Assembly: GCF_022760915.1 (NCBI RefSeq)
Contig: NZ_JAKTNS010000020.1
Coordinates: forward strand, 317-32,316
DNA from: Thermus thalpophilus
Lineage (GTDB): Bacteria > Deinococcota > Deinococci > Deinococcales > Thermaceae
Length of the DNA stretch: 32,000 nucleotides
Reading direction: 5' to 3'
The translations under genes were made by a program, and so were the position numbers. This document shows, in pieces, positions 8,332-18,290 of this stretch. Under the pieces are notes generated by a model. It was not told the origin of the DNA. It made no database searches and saw nothing but the letters and a program-made list of their open reading frames with translations. Within the stretch, counting starts at the first letter, position 1. Every line of letters starts with the position of its first letter.

Positions 8332-9476
8332 GCTTCCTGGAGAGCTACGCCCTGGAGCTAGAGCTTCTCTCCCCGGTCCACGTGGGCACCGGGGAAAACT
8401 ACCCCGCCTACGCCTATATCCCCGACTTCGCCAAGCGGCAGGTCTACTTTTTGGACACCTCCGCCCTCCTCCTTGCCCTTTCCCCCGGGCGCCGGGAGGC
8501 CTTCTTGCGCAGGGTGGCGGAGGGCCCCAAGGGAGCCCAGGAGGTGTTGCGGAGCCTCTTCGCCGAGGGGCAGGTGCCCAAGGAGGCCATCCTGCGCACC
8601 CTTCCCGCCAGCAAGGCGTTTTTGGACAGCATACTGCAGGCCACGGAGGAAGCGGCCTTGGAGTTCCGCCCCTTGCCCTCTAGCCCCTTGGGCCCCTACC
8701 TCCCTGGCTCCAGCGTGAAGGGGGCGCTCCGCACCGCCTGGCTCTACTGGCGCCTGGTGCAGAGGGGGGAGGTGGTGGAGTGGCGGGGGGGAGGCTGGGC
8801 GTGGCGCAAGCCCACGCCAAAGGACAAAGACGCCCTCATCCAGCCCCCCCAGAAGCCCGATCGCTCCCACAACCAAACCTTTGAAGGCGCGGTCTTGGGC
8901 TACCTCGCCTCCAAGAACGGCCGCCCCGATCTGAATCTCTACCAAGACCCCTTCCGCGCCGTGCGCCTCACGGACTCGAGCCCGGGGGAAGGCTTCCTCA
9001 ACCGCATCGGGGTCTTCCACCCCAAAGGCGCCATGGACCGGACCGTTATCCTGGCGGAAACCTTCCGCAAGGGAAGCCGCTTCCGCTTCCTCTTCCGCTA
9101 CCAGGGGGGCCTCGCCCGGCACGGGGGCGTGGCGGGGCCGGTGCCCCCAAAGGAGCTCGTGCGGGCCCTTAGGGAGTACTACGGCAAGGTGGCCGAGTGG
9201 GAGCGGTCCTTCGCCGAGGACGAGGGGCTTGCGCGGGCCCTCGAGGTCTACCGGGAGCTTGAGGCTCGCCTGGCGCAGGACAAGGAGGCTTTCCCCCTCC
9301 GGGTGGGCTTCGGTTCGGGAAGGCTCACCCTCCGCCTCGCCCTCCTCCTGCCCGAGGACTACCCGGAGGCGCAGGAGCCCAAGACCCGCAAAACCGCAGG
9401 AGCGCAGAGCCCGAAGGATGGCTACCCCCTGGGGTGGGCCATCGGGCGCTTGGTTCCTTTAGGAAGTGGGCGGTGA
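8328..9476 (+). CDS. csm5: Csm5 (Cas7-like RAMP)
   Basis: ATGA overlap with the csm4 stop. MSFLESYALELELLSPVHVGTGE...PYLPGSSVKGALRTAW...RVGFGSG. Occupies the last position of the csm operon. Confidence 0.85.
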   Translation: MSFLESYALELELLSPVHVGTGENYPAYAYIPDFAKRQVYFLDTSALLLALSPGRREAFLRRVAEGPKGAQEVLRSLFAEGQVPKEAILRTLPASKAFLDSILQATEEAALEFRPLPSSPLGPYLPGSSVKGALRTAWLYWRLVQRGEVVEWRGGGWAWRKPTPKDKDALIQPPQKPDRSHNQTFEGAVLGYLASKNGRPDLNLYQDPFRAVRLTDSSPGEGFLNRIGVFHPKGAMDRTVILAETFRKGSRFRFLFRYQGGLARHGGVAGPVPPKELVRALREYYGKVAEWERSFAEDEGLARALEVYRELEARLAQDKEAFPLRVGFGSGRLTLRLALLLPEDYPEAQEPKTRKTAGAQSPKDGYPLGWAIGRLVPLGSGR

Positions 9477-9690
9477 AGCTCATCCTTGTCCTGGTCGGCA
9501 AGGGTAACAAGGGAAAAGTTCACTAAATCGTAGCTCACGCCGGTATGCGGCCCAACCCTACCCCCGCACATGGCCTGGAAGGTAACGTGCGGGGGGTTAT
9601 GGGGTTGGCTCGAGGCGCTTATTTTTGTCGGGGCGAGCGTCGGGGGAAATAAGGGCAGAAGACCGAAGGCGGCCCCTCCCCGACCCCGCG

Positions 9691-9962
9691 CTACACCACG
9701 GCGAAGGCCTCGAGGCGGGTGGGGGCGCCGAGGCCCAGAATGCGCACCTCCCCTTCCACCGGGTAAAGGCGCAAGCTGTCTTCGGTAAGGTCAACAATCT
9801 TCTTCGCTCGCGCTAGAAGGTCCTTCAGCATCCTTTCGTCCAAATAGCACTCAAACACCGACAACTGCACCCGCTCCCCGTAGCTTTTCAAGAGGTTGGC
9901 CAACTTAACCGACGGCTATCGTCGGGTATGTCGTACGCAATCGCATAAAGGCGCTTGAGCAT
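9691..9962 (-). pseudogene. cas2: cas2 carrying a 1-nt frameshift
   Basis: ATG at 9962 gives MLKRLYAIAYDIPDDSRRLSWPTS*. The remainder, (K)LANLLKSYGERVQLSVFECYLDERMLKDLL...RILGLGAPTRLEAFAVV, is in another frame (track ORF 9691..9903). Adding one A to TTAAG(T) near 9906-9909 restores a 91-aa Cas2. Confidence 0.8.
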
Positions 9963-9983
9963 AGGTACATTTTAGGGGTCGCA

Positions 9984-11185
9984 TGTATCTTCTCCACGTG
10001 AGGGAGGCGCCGCCGCTTTGGTTGCCGGGCCACCACGCCCGCGGGATGGATCGGCGGCCACCCGCCCCGGCCTCCCTGCCGCACCGTATCCCGGTCTTCC
10101 ACGACCGCATCCACATGGACGGCACACGGGGTCGGGTGGCCACCTCCCTCACTCTACCAAAGGAGGCAAGGCATGGTCTTCGCAGGCATTGATGTCAGCA
10201 AGCCCCACCTGGACCTGGCCCTGGCTTCCCCCTCCGCCAAGCCCACCCGTCTCCGCTTCCCCAACACCGAGGAAGGCCGCCAAGCCCTCCTCTCCGCCCT
10301 CGCCCACCACCGCCCCGCCTGGGTCGCCCTGGAGCCCAGCAGCGTCTACCACCTCCCCCTCCTCCACCTCCTGGTGCAAAAGGGCTTCCCAGTGGCCCTG
10401 GTCAACCCCTACCACCTCGCCGCCTTCCGCAAGGCCATGGGGGAGCGCAACAAGACCGACCGCCAAGACGCCTTCCTCCTGGCCCGCTATGCCCTGGTTT
10501 ACCAGGAGGAACTCCGAGCCTACACCCCTCCCCCCCAGGCCCTCCAGGAGCTCAAGGCCCTGGTGGGGTACCAAGAGGACCTGGCCGCCCGGGAGCGGGC
10601 CATCCTGAACCCGCTGGAGGCGGCGGAGTGGGCGGGGAGCGAAGGGGTTATGGCCCTCCTCCAGAGGGAGCTGGCCTTGGTGCGGGAGCTCCTTGAGGAG
10701 GTGGAGGGAAGGATCCGGGGACTCCTGGAAACCATCCCTGAGTCCCGGGTCCTCATGGCCCTTCCTGGGGTGGGGCCCCAGGTGGCGGCGGCGGTGCTGG
10801 CCTTCCTCCCGCCCCACCTCTGGGGCCGGGCCAAGGCCGCGGCCTCCTACGCCGGCCTCATCCCGGAGCGGGAGGTGTCGGGGAAGGCGGTGGAGCGGAG
10901 CCGGCTTTCCAAGAAGGGGCCGCCCCTTTTGCGAAGGAAGCTGTACATGGCTGCTTTGGTGGCGGTGCGGCATGACCCGGAGATGCGGGCTTTTTACCAC
11001 CGCTTGCTTTCCCGGGGGAAGCGGAAGAAGCAGGCCCTTTTGGCCGTGGCCCACAAGCTTTTGCGGCGGATGATGGGACGGCTCAAAGCCTACCACGCCA
11101 GTCAGCTGGACCAGGTGGCTTGACAAGGAAGACCGTATCAATCCCCCAGGAATACTAGGACTGGTAAGGAAAAGCTAATCCTGAA
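9984..11185 (+). mobile_element. IS110-family insertion sequence (IS1000-like); boundaries approximate, within about 10 bp on the left, and the right end could be about 11140
   Basis: A single DEDD-type transposase ORF. About 190 nt of 5' non-coding sequence lies between the cas2 start and the ORF, and 17-62 nt of 3' non-coding sequence. No terminal inverted repeats are visible, as expected for IS110. GTCGCA is present at 9978-9983 and at 11186-11191. Confidence 0.7.
10173..11123 (+). CDS. IS110-family DEDD transposase / recombinase
   Basis: 316 aa, with AAGGAGG 8 nt upstream. Motifs: VFAGIDVSKPHL, WVALEPSSVYH, NKTDRQDA (DEDD motifs); C-terminal LPGVGPQVAAAVLA and SYAGLIPEREVSGK (Tnp domain). 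The 10149..11141 minus ORF is its shadow. Confidence 0.9.
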   Translation: MVFAGIDVSKPHLDLALASPSAKPTRLRFPNTEEGRQALLSALAHHRPAWVALEPSSVYHLPLLHLLVQKGFPVALVNPYHLAAFRKAMGERNKTDRQDAFLLARYALVYQEELRAYTPPPQALQELKALVGYQEDLAARERAILNPLEAAEWAGSEGVMALLQRELALVRELLEEVEGRIRGLLETIPESRVLMALPGVGPQVAAAVLAFLPPHLWGRAKAAASYAGLIPEREVSGKAVERSRLSKKGPPLLRRKLYMAALVAVRHDPEMRAFYHRLLSRGKRKKQALLAVAHKLLRRMMGRLKAYHASQLDQVA

Positions 11186-11531
11186 GTCGCAATCCCCTTA
11201 CGGGGAAGCATCTCGTGCAACCTACAAGGCCATTGACTGGGCCTTGAAGCAGTTTGTTTAGTCGCAATCCCCTTACGGGGAAGCATCTCGTGCAACGCCC
11301 CGGGGTAGACCTTCCCCGCGGCACGCTCGCCGAAGCGCGCGTCGCAATCCCCTTACGGGGAAGCATCTCGTGCAACCAGAGGGTTGACGAGCGGTTCGCC
11401 GAGTTCTTGAGGGACATGTCGCAATCCCCTTACGGGGAAGCATCTCGTGCAACTCCATCCAGCAGATACTGGGGCGCATGGAGAGTACGGCCCAGGTCGC
11501 AATCCCCTTACGGGGAAGCATCTCGTGCAAC
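11186..11531 (-). CRISPR. CRISPR array 1: five identical 36-bp repeats and four spacers (39, 44, 41 and 42 bp)
   Basis: Plus-strand repeat GTCGCAATCCCCTTACGGGGAAGCATCTCGTGCAAC at 11186, 11261, 11341, 11418 and 11496. Read on the minus strand it is GTTGCACGAGATGCTTCCCCGTAAGGGGATTGCGAC, with a CCCC/GGGG hairpin and the ATTGCGAC handle at its 3' end. The leader lies on the right. Confidence 0.95.
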
Positions 11532-11886
11532 TGTACCCCTCTCATAATCCCGTCCTGGACATCGCTCTTAGAGGGGGGGTTTGTGAGAAAGATGAAGTTT
11601 GGAATATACATAGGCCGTATAAAGGCCTTTTTTGAGGGTTTAGCTCGTCCGCAAGCCACTTGCGAAAGGGGCGATGAGAAAGTGAAAGCGCATATTCGCC
11701 TTCCCCAAGGGCAAAACTGGCTTTCAAGATCCCCCGTCCGAGCTTCGGACAAGGCCATTATAGCAGATGAGCGCAACGATGCACTCAGTACATACTGGCG
11801 ACAGAAAGAACCTTGCGGAGCTCACTGCACTATGAGAAAGTGTTAAGTGGACCTTCGCCCCGTAAAAATGCGAATATATGAAGCCG
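11532..11886 (-). promoter_or_regulatory. Leader of CRISPR array 1 (lower GC; about 235 bp is about 90% identical to the array 2 leader)
   Basis: 11534-11768 aligns with 18293-18527. It lies between the cas1 stop and the first repeat, and no coding frame is conserved between the two copies. Confidence 0.6.
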
Positions 11887-12852
11887 CTATCGTCTCTTCA
11901 AGTAATATGGGGTGTACGGTTCCCTCCCCAAAATCGCCGCCTTGAGACGGTGGGCTTGGAGCTCAATAAGCTCGTCATAGGGCTTGCGGAACCCCAAGGG
12001 GTGCGCCGCCATCTCCGAAAAGCGCTCCTCCAAAAGGGTAATCAGGACCCTCCGCCCCTCCTCGTTCAGGTACACGCCCCCATCCCGCACCTCGCCGTGG
12101 CTCGGGGTAAGCTTTCCGCGGCGGAAGCCGGAGAGCACGACCTGGTCCACCACGGGAACCCGGAACTCCTCCATGAGGTCCAGGGCTAAGGCTGGGTTGC
12201 GCCGCCCCTCGGCGTGAAGGTAGCCCACTTCGGGGTGGAGGCCCGCCAGGCGGAGCGCCACCTGCACCCGGCCAAGGAGCACGGCGTAGCCGTAGGAGAG
12301 GGCGGCGTTCACAGGGTCCTGTGGGGGCCTGCGGGTTCTGCCCCTGAGCCCATATGGGCCAAGGAGCCGCTCCAGCCCGGCGAAGTAGGCGCGGCTTCCT
12401 TGGCCTTCCGCGCCCCTCAGGACCTCCAAGGTGCCCGCCCGCTCCGCGAGCTCCAAGGCTTCCGCCACCTGCTTCGCCTCGGGCAGGGAGTGACGCTCCA
12501 GCACAGCCAGGGCCGAACGGAGCTTTCCCAGGACGAAGGCCCGGGCCAAGGGAAGAGGGCTCGCGGCGAACTGCGCCCAGAGATGCTCGGGGTTCATCTC
12601 CGAAAAGGCCCCCGCCACCCCGTGCAGAAAGCCCTCCAAGCTGAAGAAGAAGACGGGTACTCCTTGGCGCAGGAGGAAAACCAAGGCGGGGGTGGAAAGG
12701 CGAACGTTGCCCCACACCGCCACCTGCCGCACCTTGCGGGCCGGGAAGTCCATCACCCGCTCGCCTTCTTCCTCCAACACGAGCCTTCCCCGTCGCAGGC
12801 GCAAGGTGGATCCTTGCCGGGTCAAGTGAAGGACCATCAGAAGCGGGGCCAA
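11887..12852 (-). CDS. cas1: Cas1 integrase
   Basis: 321 aa. LTRQGSTLRLRRGRLVL..., GAEGQGSRAYFAGL, DPVNAALSYGYAVL and LHAEGRRNPALALDLMEEFR are typical Cas1 motifs. Confidence 0.95.
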   Translation of the reverse strand: MAPLLMVLHLTRQGSTLRLRRGRLVLEEEGERVMDFPARKVRQVAVWGNVRLSTPALVFLLRQGVPVFFFSLEGFLHGVAGAFSEMNPEHLWAQFAASPLPLARAFVLGKLRSALAVLERHSLPEAKQVAEALELAERAGTLEVLRGAEGQGSRAYFAGLERLLGPYGLRGRTRRPPQDPVNAALSYGYAVLLGRVQVALRLAGLHPEVGYLHAEGRRNPALALDLMEEFRVPVVDQVVLSGFRRGKLTPSHGEVRDGGVYLNEEGRRVLITLLEERFSEMAAHPLGFRKPYDELIELQAHRLKAAILGREPYTPYYLKRR

Positions 12853-14042: not shown

Positions 14043-14226
14043 GGGTTCATTATGTCCCCTCCGCAAAAACGCTGCCCGAGAAAAAAGGGGTAAAGGATCT
14101 CCGCCTCCTCGGGCTTGGGGGAGGTGGCCTCTAGGTCCAGGGCGACCCAGGAAAGAGCTTGCCGCATACCTGAACCCAAGCTTAGTGCCGCGCGGGCTTT
14201 CTGGCTGCCAACTATGAACCTTCCCG

Positions 14227-14821
14227 ACTCCCCGAGTCTTCCGATACCCAAGTCTTTGGAGAAGTTCTTACCAGACGCGCGAAGACCAGGGCCATCGGCT
14301 TCTAGTCTGGACCATCTTCAATGTTGGCGCTGCTGTTGTTGATACCTTAAAAGTCTATAACCCCAAATACATTGATGATCAACAACAAGGAGCCCCCCCG
14401 CCCCGGCCGGGGTGCCGTCCAGGACGCAAGTGGGGGTGCGAAACTCCCCAAGTCTTCCGATAGAACTCCCCAAGTCTTCCGATACCAACTCCCCAAGTCT
14501 TCCGATACTTCGCTCCCAAAACTCCCCAAGTCTTCCGATAGCGATTCCCCAAGTCTTCCGATACCAACTCCCCAAGTCTTCCGATACTTCGCTCCCAAAA
14601 CTCCCCAAGTCTTCCGATAGCGATTCCCCAAGTCTTCCGATACCAACTCCCCAAGTCTTCCGATACTTCGCTCCCAAAACTCCCCAAGTCTTCCGATACT
14701 GGAGCGGGCCAACTCCCCAAGTCTTCCGATACCCGGGCCGAGGGGAAATGTTGCCTTCGTGAAGGGGAAAGGGCGGGGTTTTGCTCCCCGCCCCCGTTCA
14801 AACTCCCCAAGTCTTCCGATA
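14227..14821. repeat. Iteron field: 13 direct copies of the 20-bp motif A(C/T)TCCCC(A/G)AGTCTTCCGATA
   Basis: Copies start at 14227, 14443, 14465, 14488, 14521, 14544, 14567, 14600, 14623, 14646, 14679, 14712 and 14802. Spacings are 22/23 and 33 bp. 14521-14599 and 14600-14678 are identical 79-bp units. The last copy ends 3 nt from the rep stop codon. Confidence 0.85.
14320..14392. other. A+T-rich patch, a candidate DNA unwinding element of the plasmid origin
   Basis: The lowest-GC stretch in this region (...ttgataccttaaaagtctataaccccaaatacattgatgatcaacaac...). A 10-bp inverted repeat, TGTTGTTGAT (14334-14343) and ATCAACAACA (14378-14387), brackets it. Iterons lie on both sides. Confidence 0.55.
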
Positions 14822-14824
14822 GTC

Positions 14825-16207
14825 CTAGCCCTCCAGGCCGCGCCGGAAAGATTGGACCCATTCTTCTAAAGCTCCCTGGGCCGCGGCCTCCTTAAGCTCC
14901 TCCACCAGGCGCCTGGGTTCCAACACCCCTTCCTCCATGAGCCGGGTGAGGTCCTCGAGGTCGCCCACGGAAAGCCGGGAGCGGAGGAGGAGCTGCGCCA
15001 CCTGCACCGCCCGGCGCACCTGGGCCTCCTTGGGCATGTTCTGCCACTCCCTTTCCGCCTCCTCCTCAATGCGGCGGGCCTCCTCCTCCTCCACCTTGGC
15101 CTGGACCCGGCGGGCGCTGGTGGGGGGAAGGGCGCGGGCGTACTTGCCGCTTTCGTCCCGAATCACGTCCACCAGGAAGCCTAGCCTGTTCTTGGGCTTG
15201 TAGCCCGAGGCTAGGATGCTCCGGTAGCGCTCCAGGCGGTCTTTGATGTGGGCCAGGGGGTAGCGGCGGGCCAGGGAGTAGGCGCTCGTGAAGGAAAGGC
15301 CCTCGGCCATGAGGAGCTCCACCGCCTCCATGTCGGGCACGCCCCCCGCCTCCTCCCCGAAGACGTAGACAATGGTCTGGTTCTGGCCCCGGCCAATGTA
15401 CTCCACGGACTGGAGGTAGCGGCGTTCCATGAGCTCCTCGTGGGCGGGCTCGAGGGTCCGCCGCACCTTGTCGGGCCGCTTGTGGACGATCTTGCAGGCG
15501 GCGGCCCACTCCATGAGGTTCACCTCAAAGCGGGTGAGGGGGGCGGGGTTTTCAGGGGAGAAGCGCTGGGCGTCCAGAAGGCGGTAAAGCGCCCGGCTCA
15601 AGGGGCGGCGCAGGCTGGCCATGAACTCTATGTCAATGGGCTTGACGTAGTTTTGCTTCAAGGAGCGCACGATCTCCTTGGCCAGGGTGATGCGCAAGAC
15701 GCTGGCCCGGTCCAGCTTGCCCTCGGCGCTGGAGGTGTACTCAAGCTTTTCAATGTAGCGGAAGGTGACGCTCTGCCAGCGCCCGTCCGCCCGCCAGGCC
15801 TCGGAGAGGACGTAGGTGGCGGTGGTGAGGCGCATGAGGCTCTCCTTGAGCGCCTGGTAGTAGTAGCCCGAGGTGTCCAGGCCCATGAGTTTCAGGATCT
15901 GGTAGGGGGTAGCGGTGAAGGTCCCGTCCTCCGGGCTTCCGGCGTTGAAGTAGAGGGCGATGAGGGCCAGGGAAACCTCGTTGTCCAGCCCGTGGGGCAC
16001 ACCCCCCACCTTCTCGCTGGCGTAGCAGGCCAGCTTCACCGGCTTGCCCAAAAACTCAAACTCCTCCTCCCAGGAGGCGTAGCCCTCGGGGATCCGCTCC
16101 TGGATGGAGATGAGCCCAAGCCGGGCCACGTTGGCCTCGTCCAGGTGCTGCGCCCGGGCCAGGACGTCCTTCTTGGAAGGGCGGCTTGCGGCCATGTTCC
16201 GGTTCAT
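14825..16207 (-). CDS. Plasmid replication initiator (RepA / RPA family, RepT-like)
   Basis: Only the C-terminal 460 aa of the 901-aa track ORF is credible, starting MNRNMAASRPSKKDVLARAQHLDEANVARLGLISIQERIPE...GLDNEVSLALIALYF...TPYQILKLMGLDTSGYYYQALKESLMRL. This resembles replication initiator protein A. An iteron field lies directly downstream. The upstream 440 aa is the shadow of csm6. Confidence 0.85.
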   Translation of the reverse strand: MNRNMAASRPSKKDVLARAQHLDEANVARLGLISIQERIPEGYASWEEEFEFLGKPVKLACYASEKVGGVPHGLDNEVSLALIALYFNAGSPEDGTFTATPYQILKLMGLDTSGYYYQALKESLMRLTTATYVLSEAWRADGRWQSVTFRYIEKLEYTSSAEGKLDRASVLRITLAKEIVRSLKQNYVKPIDIEFMASLRRPLSRALYRLLDAQRFSPENPAPLTRFEVNLMEWAAACKIVHKRPDKVRRTLEPAHEELMERRYLQSVEYIGRGQNQTIVYVFGEEAGGVPDMEAVELLMAEGLSFTSAYSLARRYPLAHIKDRLERYRSILASGYKPKNRLGFLVDVIRDESGKYARALPPTSARRVQAKVEEEEARRIEEEAEREWQNMPKEAQVRRAVQVAQLLLRSRLSVGDLEDLTRLMEEGVLEPRRLVEELKEAAAQGALEEWVQSFRRGLEG

Positions 16208-16243
16208 TCTACCGGAGGAGGGAAGCTGTGGTATAAGACTTCC

Positions 16244-17656
16244 ATGCTCCAGGATCAGGAACGGTGGAACCAACTGCAGGAGGCGTGGGCCAGGTACAAG
16301 GAGGCGGTGGGGGCGGGCGGCAACCCCCAGGCCCTTTACCAGGAGATGGTCTGGCCCCACCTGTTGGAGCTTTGGCGGCACGCGCCCCCCGTGTCGCCCG
16401 AAAGGATGGTCTTTCGCGCCTCCCTCCACACCCTGGGCACGAGCCCCGAGGCCACGGCCTTGGCCATCCTGGGGACGGGGGCGCAGGAGGTCTACGTGCT
16501 GCACACGGAGGAAAGCCGCCGCTTCCTCGAGCGCCTGCGGCAGGACACGGGGGTAATGATCTACCCCATTGAGATCGGCAAGAGCGACGTGACCGCCATT
16601 TACCGCGAGGTGCGCAAGCTTTTGGAGCGTTACCCGGAGGAACCCGTGGCCCTGGACGTGACCAGCGGCACCAAGGCCATGAGCGCCGGGCTTGCGGCGG
16701 CGGGGTTCTTCTTCCGCCGCTTCTTTCCCAAGGTCAAGGTGGTCTACGTGGACAACGAGGACTACGACGTGGCCTTGCGACGGCCCCGGGCGGGATCGGA
16801 AAAGCTCATCGTCCTGCCCGACCCCCACGAGGTTGGGGGAGAGGTGGACTGGCTTTTCGCCTCCGAGCTCTACGGGAAGGAGGACTTCGCTGGAGCCGCC
16901 TCCTACTTCAACCGCCTGGTGGGGGCTACGGGCAACCAGGCCTACACCCTTTACCAAAACCTTGCCGAGATGTACCGGGCATGGCGAGCCCTGGATTTCA
17001 AGGAGGCGGCCAGAAAGGCGGAAAGCCTGCTGGAGGCCTTGAGGAAAAACGTCTGGCTCCAGCACCCCCTGAACCGCCACTTCCAGCGCCTGGAGGGGCA
17101 GGCCTCCCTCCTCAAGGGGGCGCGGGACCTCTTGACCACGGGGGACCTGGGCAACCGGCGGGGGGTGCTGGGGGTTGCGGCCACACTCCTGCACCAGAGC
17201 GGCAGGCTGGCCGACCGCGACCAGACCACCCTGGCGGCGCTCTACGCTTATCGGGCTTTGGAGCTCCTCCTGCAGGAGCGGCTTAGGCGGTATGGCCGCC
17301 TTGCGGAGGCGCCCGAGCTCTCCCCGGAGGAAAGGGAGGCGTTGCAGGGTGAGCTTGGGCGCATCCTGCCCGGGGAGGAGGTTCCGAGGGTGCGTGAGAA
17401 GCTCGGGCTTTTGGAGGTTTTGGCCTTCTTGCGGGTCCTGGGGGACCCCCTCCTGGCCTCCTGGAATGTCCGGGACCTTCAAGGGCTTGCTGGGGTGCTC
17501 AAGGCCAGGAACCAGGCGCTTTTGGTCCACGGCCTCCAGGTGCCCTCCGCAAGGCAGGTGGAGCAGGTGGCGGGGCTCGCCCGCAAGCTCCTGCAGGACC
17601 TGCAGCGGGAGGTGGGGCTACAACCCGACCTCGAGGCCATCCCCCTTCCCCGCTAG
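16244..17656 (+). CDS. csm6: Csm6, a CARF-HEPN cyclic-oligoadenylate-activated RNase
   Basis: 470 aa from the internal ATG of the 15248..17656 ORF. ...GGNPQALYQEMVWPHLLELW..., SLHTLGTSPEATALAILG, CARF motif DVTSGTKAMSAGLAAAGFFF, HEPN motif KARNQALLVHG. Closely resembles T. thermophilus Csm6 as I remember it. Confidence 0.9.
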   Translation: MLQDQERWNQLQEAWARYKEAVGAGGNPQALYQEMVWPHLLELWRHAPPVSPERMVFRASLHTLGTSPEATALAILGTGAQEVYVLHTEESRRFLERLRQDTGVMIYPIEIGKSDVTAIYREVRKLLERYPEEPVALDVTSGTKAMSAGLAAAGFFFRRFFPKVKVVYVDNEDYDVALRRPRAGSEKLIVLPDPHEVGGEVDWLFASELYGKEDFAGAASYFNRLVGATGNQAYTLYQNLAEMYRAWRALDFKEAARKAESLLEALRKNVWLQHPLNRHFQRLEGQASLLKGARDLLTTGDLGNRRGVLGVAATLLHQSGRLADRDQTTLAALYAYRALELLLQERLRRYGRLAEAPELSPEEREALQGELGRILPGEEVPRVREKLGLLEVLAFLRVLGDPLLASWNVRDLQGLAGVLKARNQALLVHGLQVPSARQVEQVAGLARKLLQDLQREVGLQPDLEAIPLPR

Positions 17657-17717: not shown

Positions 17718-18290
17718 GTAGCAATCCCCCTGCGGGGAAGCATCTCGTGCAACTTCCCACATGCTCGGGCAGTTGCCAGTAAAGACTGGACTTGTAGCAA
17801 TCCCCTTACGGGGAAGCATCTCGTGCAACGTTTAATCCTACGCCCCCTTGGGGGGCTCAATTCAAGGCTATGTAGCAATCCCCTTACGGGGAAGCATCTC
17901 GTGCAACTTCCAAATAAGTGTGAGAATTGTCGTAATACCACTACTTGGGAGTAGCAATCCCCTTACGGGGAAGCATCTCGTGCAACTTGGAGGATATTCG
18001 GGCTGGTCGCGGTCTTCCATTTACGGAGTCGCAATCCCCTTACGGGGAAGCATCTCGTGCAACCCGTAACCCTCCTGACGGTAGAGGAGCTGGAGTCTGT
18101 GCGGGTAGCAATCCCCTTACGGGGAAGCATCTCGTGCAACTTTGTTGACCGGTTCCCGCATGCTCGTGTCTTGGCGGGGTAGCAATCCCCTTACGGGGAA
18201 GCATCTCGTGCAACCATCGTGGCGGGGCCCGATGGTGAGCCCCTCCGGCCCATCGTAGCAATCCCCTTACGGGGAAGCATCTCGTGCAAC
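17718..18290 (-). CRISPR. CRISPR array 2: eight 36-bp repeats and seven spacers (40, 42, 43, 41, 41, 38 and 40 bp)
   Basis: Repeats at 17718, 17794, 17872, 17951, 18028, 18105, 18179 and 18255. The consensus is GTAGCAATCCCCTTACGGGGAAGCATCTCGTGCAAC on the plus strand. The 17718 copy is degenerate (CCCCCTGCGGGG), marking the leader-distal end. The 18028 copy has GTCGC like array 1. Confidence 0.95.

Follow-up and report, generated by a model that had tools for sequence, protein, structure and literature searches.

How an insertion sequence (IS) came to lie between a cas2 gene and the neighbouring CRISPR array, and why its borders resemble the CRISPR repeat, is the question raised by this 32,000-nt stretch of Thermus thalpophilus DNA (assembly GCF_022760915.1, contig NZ_JAKTNS010000020.1, forward-strand positions 317 to 32,316). 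We refer to the whole stretch as the window and number it from its own first letter. The initial annotation read the element as a member of the IS110 family and proposed that it homes to CRISPR arrays by means of a bridge RNA encoded in its non-coding end; our analysis supports that interpretation in substance. The element, which occupies 9984-11140, is very probably an IS1000-type member of the IS110 group that was inserted by bridge-RNA-guided recombination.

The element separates two parts of a CRISPR repeat

The limits of the element were set by its relatives. A DNA search of 32 Thermus genomes recovered about 30 full or partial copies, and when their ends were aligned the homology was confined to 9984-11140, starting at TGTATCTT (9984) and stopping at ...GAC(C/A)GTATCA (11140). 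The element thus runs on the plus strand from TGTATC to GTATCA and measures 1,157 bp with one CA counted, which corrects the span of 9963-11221 assigned initially. Inspection of both ends found no terminal inverted repeats. At the window copy the junctions read GTCGCA, element, ATCCCC, with CA at both (9982-9983 and 11139-11140), and the 6 + 6 nt of flank, once joined, are bases 1-12 of the repeat with a single CA. The chance of a 12-base reconstitution at a fixed site is about 4^-12.

The motifs quoted in the initial annotation all occur where it placed them: GTCGCA at 9978-9983 and 11186-11191, GTATC at 9985-9989 and 11135-11139, GGGGTCG at 9975-9981 and 10128-10134, and GTATCAATCCCCC at 11135-11147, identical to the repeat at 10 of 13 bases. 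The resemblance of the borders to the repeat is real, but it is not mimicry, since it arises at the junction of the split-repeat halves with the GTAT of the IS itself. The 13-mer at 11135-11147 is composite: its GTAT comes from the IS, its CA is the core common to both, and its ATCCCC is target sequence. GTCGCA, which had been taken as a border motif of the element, lies outside it and is also target DNA, and GTATC, indeed present near both ends, lies inside the element in both cases.

The same junction recurs throughout the genus. The left flanks of CRISPR-sited copies consist of an upstream repeat, a spacer of about 40 nt and GTCGCA, so that the left flank of the window copy is found elsewhere with a spacer and an upstream repeat before it. 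The right flanks consist of ATCCCC and the other 24 nt of whichever repeat variant the local array uses; the bases kept on the right of the window copy run on, in other copies, into TTACGGGG...TGCAAC. Tabulating the flanks of other copies, as had been suggested, showed that 21 of 31 distinct scorable right ends continue as the remaining 30 nt of the local CRISPR repeat, with up to 19 more repeats downstream of the occupied one. The split point is constant, between repeat bases 6 and 7 and in a single orientation, and occupied repeats carry two CA where intact repeats carry one. At least six repeat variants are represented among the occupied sites (for example ...AAGCATCTCGTGCAAC, ...CTCAATCCCTTGCAAC and ...CTATGTGGTTTGCAAC). 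The last spacer base is G at 6 of 7 occupied sites and at about half of all repeats, numbers too small for a claim.

The window genome itself contains the intact 11-mer target, GTCGCAATCCC, 25 times, 24 of them in CRISPR arrays. The window copy is the only full copy in this genome despite these 25 unoccupied targets, which is compatible with low activity and proves nothing. A second trace lies on contig C112:7895-8040 (L002:1495-1640), where a 115-nt remnant of the right end (96% identical) joins the terminal repeat of a 19-repeat array at the same base, the remainder of the IS and everything beyond it having been deleted. Many Thermus arrays end leader-distally in such right-end remnants.

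Not every lineage inserts into CRISPR repeats. In one Thermus species, a sublineage (G005; C106; L067-L070, L094-L099) occupies a dispersed chromosomal repeat, ATGTYGCA/AARCCAAMGTGCGGGCAC; we found five right ends at occupied sites and, on the chromosome, 11 empty sites that match the reconstructed target and contain one CA.

At the window site only 12 nt of the repeat are recognisable, and 39 nt of spacer length (11147-11185) separate this stub from repeat 1. We considered these 39 nt as the decayed rest of the split repeat and ruled this out, their local alignment score against the repeat being no better than that of shuffles (p = 0.35). No second copy of them was present in the 32 Thermus genomes, and a phage search gave no match. 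Either 24 nt of the repeat were lost at this site or the terminal repeat was previously a stub.

A predicted bridge RNA with two internal loops

Between the left end of the element and the ATG of its recombinase gene lie 189 nt, which fold at -91.5 kcal/mol (z = -2.8), a stability reached by 1 of 200 shuffles. A consensus fold computed from 11 distinct copies predicts an RNA (Table 1) in which an outer stem, 9998-10007 paired with 10143-10152, encloses putative target-binding and donor-binding loops. Internal loop 1 is closed by 10011-10014/10053-10056 around the hairpin 10026-10041, and internal loop 2 by 10057-10067/10129-10140 around the hairpin 10092-10107; each holds a 5-bp hairpin. Five helices are 93-100% paired, with compensatory changes at 4 pairs against 1.0 expected. 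An extra 3-bp helix (alignment columns 95-97 with 139-141) failed the pair count and was dropped. The proposal that 9984-10172 is the bridge-RNA region therefore appears sound: the predicted two-loop fold carries guides that covary with target and donor flanks.

The placing of the guides within that region has to be revised. GGGGTCG of the left flank does recur at 10128-10134, as had been noticed, but the recurrence is part of the basal stem of the donor loop, nearly invariant and present also in copies outside CRISPR repeats. It is not a guide, because it is found in all lineages, including those with other targets. The predicted target guides are instead at 10017-10025 and 10043-10049.

Predicted guides follow the flanks across lineages

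In the IS621 bridge RNA, a left guide reads like the top strand and a right guide is complementary to it, the core being part of the match (PMC11208160). By these rules the predicted left target guide, TTTGGTTGC, reads as G-GTCGC apart from one U.G wobble, and the right target guide, GGGATGG in the window copy and GGGATTG in other CRISPR-homing copies, would pair with the core and right target, CAATCCC. The lineages that sit elsewhere have correspondingly different guides. In G005 (five right ends) the right target guide GACTTTG faces the right flank CAAAGCC, and the left target guide, CTATGTTGC, is a perfect 9/9 match to the left flank, CTATGTTGCA. G014:C59 has GGGGCTG for a right flank of CAGCCCC, its left guide fitting only with an indel. 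In G117, from another family of the order and with 60% amino acid identity, TGGGGTG accompanies CACCCCA; here the right target guide and the donor guide were used and the poorly fitting left target guide was left out. A further copy, G014:C37, has a very different target loop and, its right end being missing, falls outside the right-flank test. Relative to the CRISPR-homing copies, the right flanks of the three retargeted lineages differ at 7 positions, and 7/7 of these changes are mirrored in the guide.

The donor side behaves in the same way where it varies. The third base of the left donor guide, ACCGTATCC in the window copy, covaries with the right end, ACCGTATCA, being C, A or G in three lineages, so that guide and right end agree exactly in reading ACC-, ACA- or ACG-GTATC. 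No copy varies in the right donor guide, ACATG, or in the left end, whose CATGT (core plus left end) this guide complements; it is assigned by position and complementarity only.

A second array in the window, array 2 (17718-18290), has the variant GTAGCA... in 8 of its 9 repeats and GTCGCA in one. The changed base falls in the stretch read by the predicted left target guide and would make a mismatch.

A model for excision and insertion

These observations can be assembled into a cycle of the kind described for IS621. On leaving its site the element would circularise, its right end (...ACCGTAT) meeting its left end (TGTATC...) across one CA to give ...GTAT-CA-TGTATC..., and excision would restore the site GTCGCAATCCCC; recombinase-RNA complexes are reported to perform excision as well (PMC13626964). 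Across the joined ends the hexamers TTGACA and TATCTT are spaced by 17 nt, and they may constitute a junction promoter driving an RNA of about 155 nt followed by the recombinase gene. The predicted RNA starts about 7 nt past TATCTT, and the IS621 circle reconstitutes such a promoter (PMC11208160).

One loop of the RNA would read the circle junction. The other would read about 12 bases: the spacer G, GTCG, the core CA and ATCCC, the repeat portion of which corresponds to bases 1-11 of Thermus Cas6-type CRISPR repeats on the plus strand or, read as CRISPR RNA (crRNA), to the repeat's 3' end. Strand exchange at CA by the recombinase would then place the element between GTCGCA and ATCCCC with CA on each side, in a single orientation that leaves the recombinase gene antisense to the pre-crRNA. 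In the window, the site hit would have been the leader-distal terminal repeat beside cas2, of which 12 nt can still be recognised.

Alternative explanations

Several observations weigh against this account. The bridge RNA is a prediction from sequence. The copies are 92% identical over the RNA and most pairs never vary, so that support from structural covariation is modest. An Rfam 15 scan of 9000-12500 (E ≤ 1) returned CRISPR repeats and two weak chance matches and no bridge-RNA family. The outer stem encloses both loops, and IS621 has been described with a separate 5' stem-loop. The right target guide of the window copy is mismatched to its own site, with G for the U of its relatives opposite the core A; for the left target guide the match to the CRISPR target amounts to only 6 bases, one of them by wobble; the second core base in both left guides is C, facing A; and the left flanks of G014:C59 and G014:C37 fit their guide only when an indel is allowed. 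Finally, the right flank at the window site shows ATCCCC alone, and that a whole repeat was hit there is something we infer.

Some of these points could be turned into a different explanation, in which the site preference is read by the recombinase protein, or from a hairpin of the repeat, and the complementarity of the non-coding end is incidental. The predictive status of the RNA and its largely invariant stems would suit this, and the palindromic centre of the repeat could be recognised as a structure. We nevertheless hold it to be quite improbable: four right flanks are each matched by a 7-nt non-coding segment (three at 7/7 and one at 6/7), 7/7 flank changes are mirrored, recombinase identity among these lineages is still 60-88%, the point of insertion is not within the repeat palindrome, and solved relatives use exactly the same RNA layout. 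That the matches are chance in GC-rich DNA, a caution voiced initially, and that the element simply landed between cas2 and the array is hardly credible. Only 12 nt of repeat are present at the window site and the listed motifs are 5-7 nt long, but the 12-nt match across the element is exact and lies right beside an array of the same repeat, the same junction is found in 21 other places, and orthologous loci have a full terminal repeat about 25 nt from the cas2 start. With the fixed split in 21 of 31 right ends and guides that match the repeat, the proposed homing to CRISPR arrays holds up well.

The direction of borrowing has been read the other way. Blesa et al. 2019 (PMC6352166) counted repeats as partial IS copies and proposed that CRISPR recruits segments of the IS; by that account the last ~32 bp belong to IS1000, and Thermus CRISPR repeats, or single copies of these, were recruited from it. 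Database positions 1165-1196 of IS1000A/B are indeed identical to the CRISPR repeats of HB8 and HB27 (PMC6352166), and the right end of the element shares GT..CA with the start of the repeat. However, the 30 nt past GTATCA vary with the repeat variant of the local array and are missing from the G005, G014 and G117 copies, which have other sequences there; the 6 nt that begin the repeat lie on the opposite side of the element; and intact repeats have one CA where occupied repeats have two. We consider recruitment from the IS very improbable as an origin of this arrangement. It is also possible, if unlikely, that the element spread between arrays mainly by array shuffling or by homologous recombination involving the repeats and spacers that flank it, in which case we would be overcounting independent insertions. 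The arrays of one genome share repeats and leaders, and in one metagenome contig discussed below (L120) the repeats are mixed in order, as recombination or a chimeric assembly might produce. Against this, homology to the repeat on the left side is limited to 6 nt, and the occupied repeats belong to at least six variants in many species, with different spacers on either side.

Relationship to known elements

The recombinase encoded by the element has an intact frame and both domains of the family (PF01548, DEDD_Tnp_IS110, 2e-30, 105.8 bits against a cut-off of 29; PF02371, Transposase_20, 2e-22, 79.9 bits against a cut-off of 21.3). Its residues 3-306 align to ISCro4 (9t56, 1e-35) and IS621 (8wt6, 1e-33), both solved bridge recombinases. 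It is 81% identical, without gaps, to the protein of IS1000B of T. thermophilus HB8, and the element is 83% identical at the nucleotide level to copies annotated as IS1000B on HB8 pTT27; the closest copies found, in G024 and on a T. brockianus plasmid, are 90% identical. In usual ISfinder practice, members of the same IS share more than about 95% amino acid or 90% nucleotide identity. Since 81% and 83% are well under that level, the element is, by sequence comparison, an IS1000 relative and a distinct IS.

Placement in the IS110 group follows from the two-domain recombinase, the long left non-coding end with its predicted two-loop RNA and covarying guides, the CA core shared by both sides and single in empty sites, and the lack of terminal inverted repeats. 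The IS1111 group, as defined in PMC11187229, has subterminal inverted repeats and a guide RNA encoded 3' of the transposase gene; we rejected it here, as only 17 nt follow the stop codon and the long non-coding region is upstream. A CRISPR-associated transposon (CAST) was also rejected: the element has one open reading frame, for an IS110-type recombinase, and no Tn7-type genes. The window copy appears largely intact, sharing with its relatives an open frame, every stem and three of four guides; the stem closing its target loop carries two compensated changes.

IS1000A and IS1000B of T. thermophilus HB8 (Ashby & Bergquist 1990, as cited in PMC6352166) belong to the IS110 family. They share with the window element the genus, the size class, the ends (TGTATCTT ... 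GTATCA), the architecture of the non-coding RNA and the insertion point in the CRISPR repeat, which we find at three full HB8 copies (L034, L062, L064). The window element differs from them in the compensated changes of the target-loop stem and in a right target guide that is one base off.

The E. coli element IS621 (Durrant et al. 2024, PMC11208160; 8wt6 and related structures) has the same two recombinase domains, a left-end guide RNA with two loops and the same strand rules, a 2-nt core and a junction promoter like the one predicted here. Its natural target is the multicopy repetitive extragenic palindromic (REP) element, whereas that of the window element is the CRISPR repeat; its core is CT rather than CA; and its right target guide pairs 4 bases where the one proposed here pairs 7, although longer ones have been reported for some orthologues (PMC11208160). 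The enclosing outer stem is a further difference. ISPpu9 of Pseudomonas putida (PMC12288879) is, by its description, a similar case of an IS110-family element in a short, multicopy, conserved host repeat, in that instance REP. Tn7-like CASTs share with the window element only the link between a transposon, an RNA guide and CRISPR: they aim elsewhere by means of Cas effectors and crRNAs, whereas this element would use its own RNA and recombinase to target the array.

The mechanism is thus of the known IS621 type, and the CRISPR repeat as a natural target is its notable part. Full-text searches, subscription-only papers lying outside them, found no statement of an IS110-family element targeting CRISPR repeats, and term look-ups in Durrant et al. 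2024 and the seekRNA paper found no mention of IS1000, Thermus or CRISPR repeats as targets.

Such an element would have as its programmed target the immune memory locus of its host. An insertion into a CRISPR repeat is probably harmless, and such repeats provide landing sites by the dozen, all identical and in Thermus often on megaplasmids; the choice makes sense in the way that REP does for IS621, because the sites are multicopy and the targeted bases are common to many Thermus variants. Each insertion breaks one repeat and cuts older spacers off from the leader. This reading would also explain the CRISPR-repeat end of the IS1000 database sequence, of whose published 1,196 bp about 30 bp appear to be CRISPR repeat, that is, target DNA, as well as the dozens of partial IS1000 BLAST copies in Thermus that the 2019 survey took for CRISPR recruitment. 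The family may in addition offer thermostable bridge recombinases with a known natural guide/target pair.

Repeats carrying bases of the IS

Several arrays contain repeats that begin with the end of the IS in place of their own first bases. The fourth array of the window genome (contig C11:35135-35400; L116:836-1100; L029) has four repeats and a leader almost as in array 1. It reads, in order, about 24 nt of the IS right end, two GTATCA repeats, two leader-proximal TTATCA repeats and the leader, the GTCGCA start having been replaced. A plasmid array of T. brockianus type (G007; L115, G007:C2:32230-32800) has 7 GTATCA repeats and, beside cas2, a normal terminal repeat (AACGCA...), without an IS. 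Versions of it in two hot-spring metagenomes (L117, L118) are longer: each has an additional internal unit, and one of them has further units at the leader end. The added units all carry GTATCA repeats, which indicates that this array is still acquiring spacers. In a metagenome contig (L119, Ga0116210_1011767) a full IS lies in a third-family repeat (GTTGCA...TTTGCGAC), followed by one GTATCA repeat and then the leader. L120 (OGCI01018830.1) likewise has a full IS in a third-family repeat and one GTATCA repeat, then two normal repeats on the leader side.

It seems moderately probable that an IS in the leader-proximal repeat permanently rewrites the CRISPR repeat through spacer acquisition; we go no further than this because L120 requires recombination or an assembly chimera. 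The IS would insert into the first repeat, and the acquisition machinery, measuring 36 nt from the leader, would duplicate the leader-adjacent 36 nt and so copy the GTAT of the IS in place of GTCG into all later repeats. The IS would then decay, as at C11, or be precisely excised, as in G007. The C11, G007 and L119 arrays have different repeat bodies and would represent three stages of this process, by which the 5' handle of the crRNA would change from AUUGCGAC to AUUGAUAC. Propagation of an altered first repeat is known; as far as we could find, an IS as the source of the alteration has not been described. If the proposal is correct, these arrays document, in nature, that repeats in Thermus are duplicated by a ruler and that a transposon has driven the evolution of the repeat.

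The surrounding CRISPR-Cas locus

The element sits in a plasmid-like type III-A locus (Table 1) with the cas10/csm genes on the plus strand and, on the minus strand, csm6, cas1, the leader, array 1, the IS and cas2 in that order. A RepA gene with iterons and the second array come next. Array 1, whose repeats match Rfam CRISPR-DR36 on the minus strand, lies between cas1 and cas2 in a single direction (cas1, leader, array, cas2). The leader is on its right side, because the adjoining 100+ nt recur beside two other arrays of the genome, on contigs C112 (identical, 106 nt compared) and C11 (few differences). The IS is therefore at the leader-distal edge of array 1, where the initial annotation had put it.

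Table 1. Positions of the element, its predicted RNA and guides, and the adjoining CRISPR-Cas features in the window
Feature	Position	Strand	Evidence or remark
cas2	9691-9962	-	Pfam CRISPR_Cas2; start codon (CAT on plus strand) 9960-9962, 21 nt from IS left end
Left half of split repeat, GTCGCA	9978-9983	+	Sequence; last two bases are the left core CA
TATCTT, -10-like hexamer	9986-9991	+	Invariant in all copies
Predicted bridge RNA	9998-10152	+	RNAalifold and minimum free energy folds
Predicted left target guide, TTTGGTTGC	10017-10025	+	Same sense as G-GTCGC, one U.G wobble
Predicted right target guide, GGGATGG	10043-10049	+	Complement of core and right target CAATCCC
Predicted left donor guide, ACCGTATCC	10083-10091	+	Same sense as right end ACCGTATCA
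Predicted right donor guide, ACATG	10113-10117	+	Complement of CATGT (core and left end)
Bridge recombinase (transposase), 316 aa, intact frame	10173-11123	+	Pfam DEDD_Tnp_IS110 and Transposase_20
TTGACA, -35-like hexamer	11120-11125	+	Overlaps stop codon; kept in almost all right ends
Right core CA	11139-11140	+	Followed by ATCCCC (11141-11146), sole remainder of the right half of the repeat
39 nt of spacer length	11147-11185	+	Between 12-nt repeat stub and repeat 1
CRISPR array 1	11186-11531	- (transcribed)	Five identical 36-nt repeats and four spacers
Leader of array 1	11532-11886	-	Reaches stop codon of cas1
cas1	11887-12852	-	Pfam Cas1

A RepA-family gene has beside it about 13 direct repeats of iteron type, ACTCCCCAAGTCTTCCGATA, at a spacing of 23 or 33 nt (14219-14821, 14825-17530); together they are a plasmid replicon within the CRISPR-Cas locus. 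By its translation, cas2 is frameshifted near 9903-9909, 18 residues and the remainder falling in different frames, which could reflect decay after the IS split it from the array or an error in this 179-contig draft assembly. A promoter-like pair, TGGAGA and TAAAAT separated by 16 nt (9969-9996, minus strand), spans the left end of the IS and its flank and faces cas2 (1 found against 0.1 expected), and possibly forms an outward hybrid promoter toward that gene.

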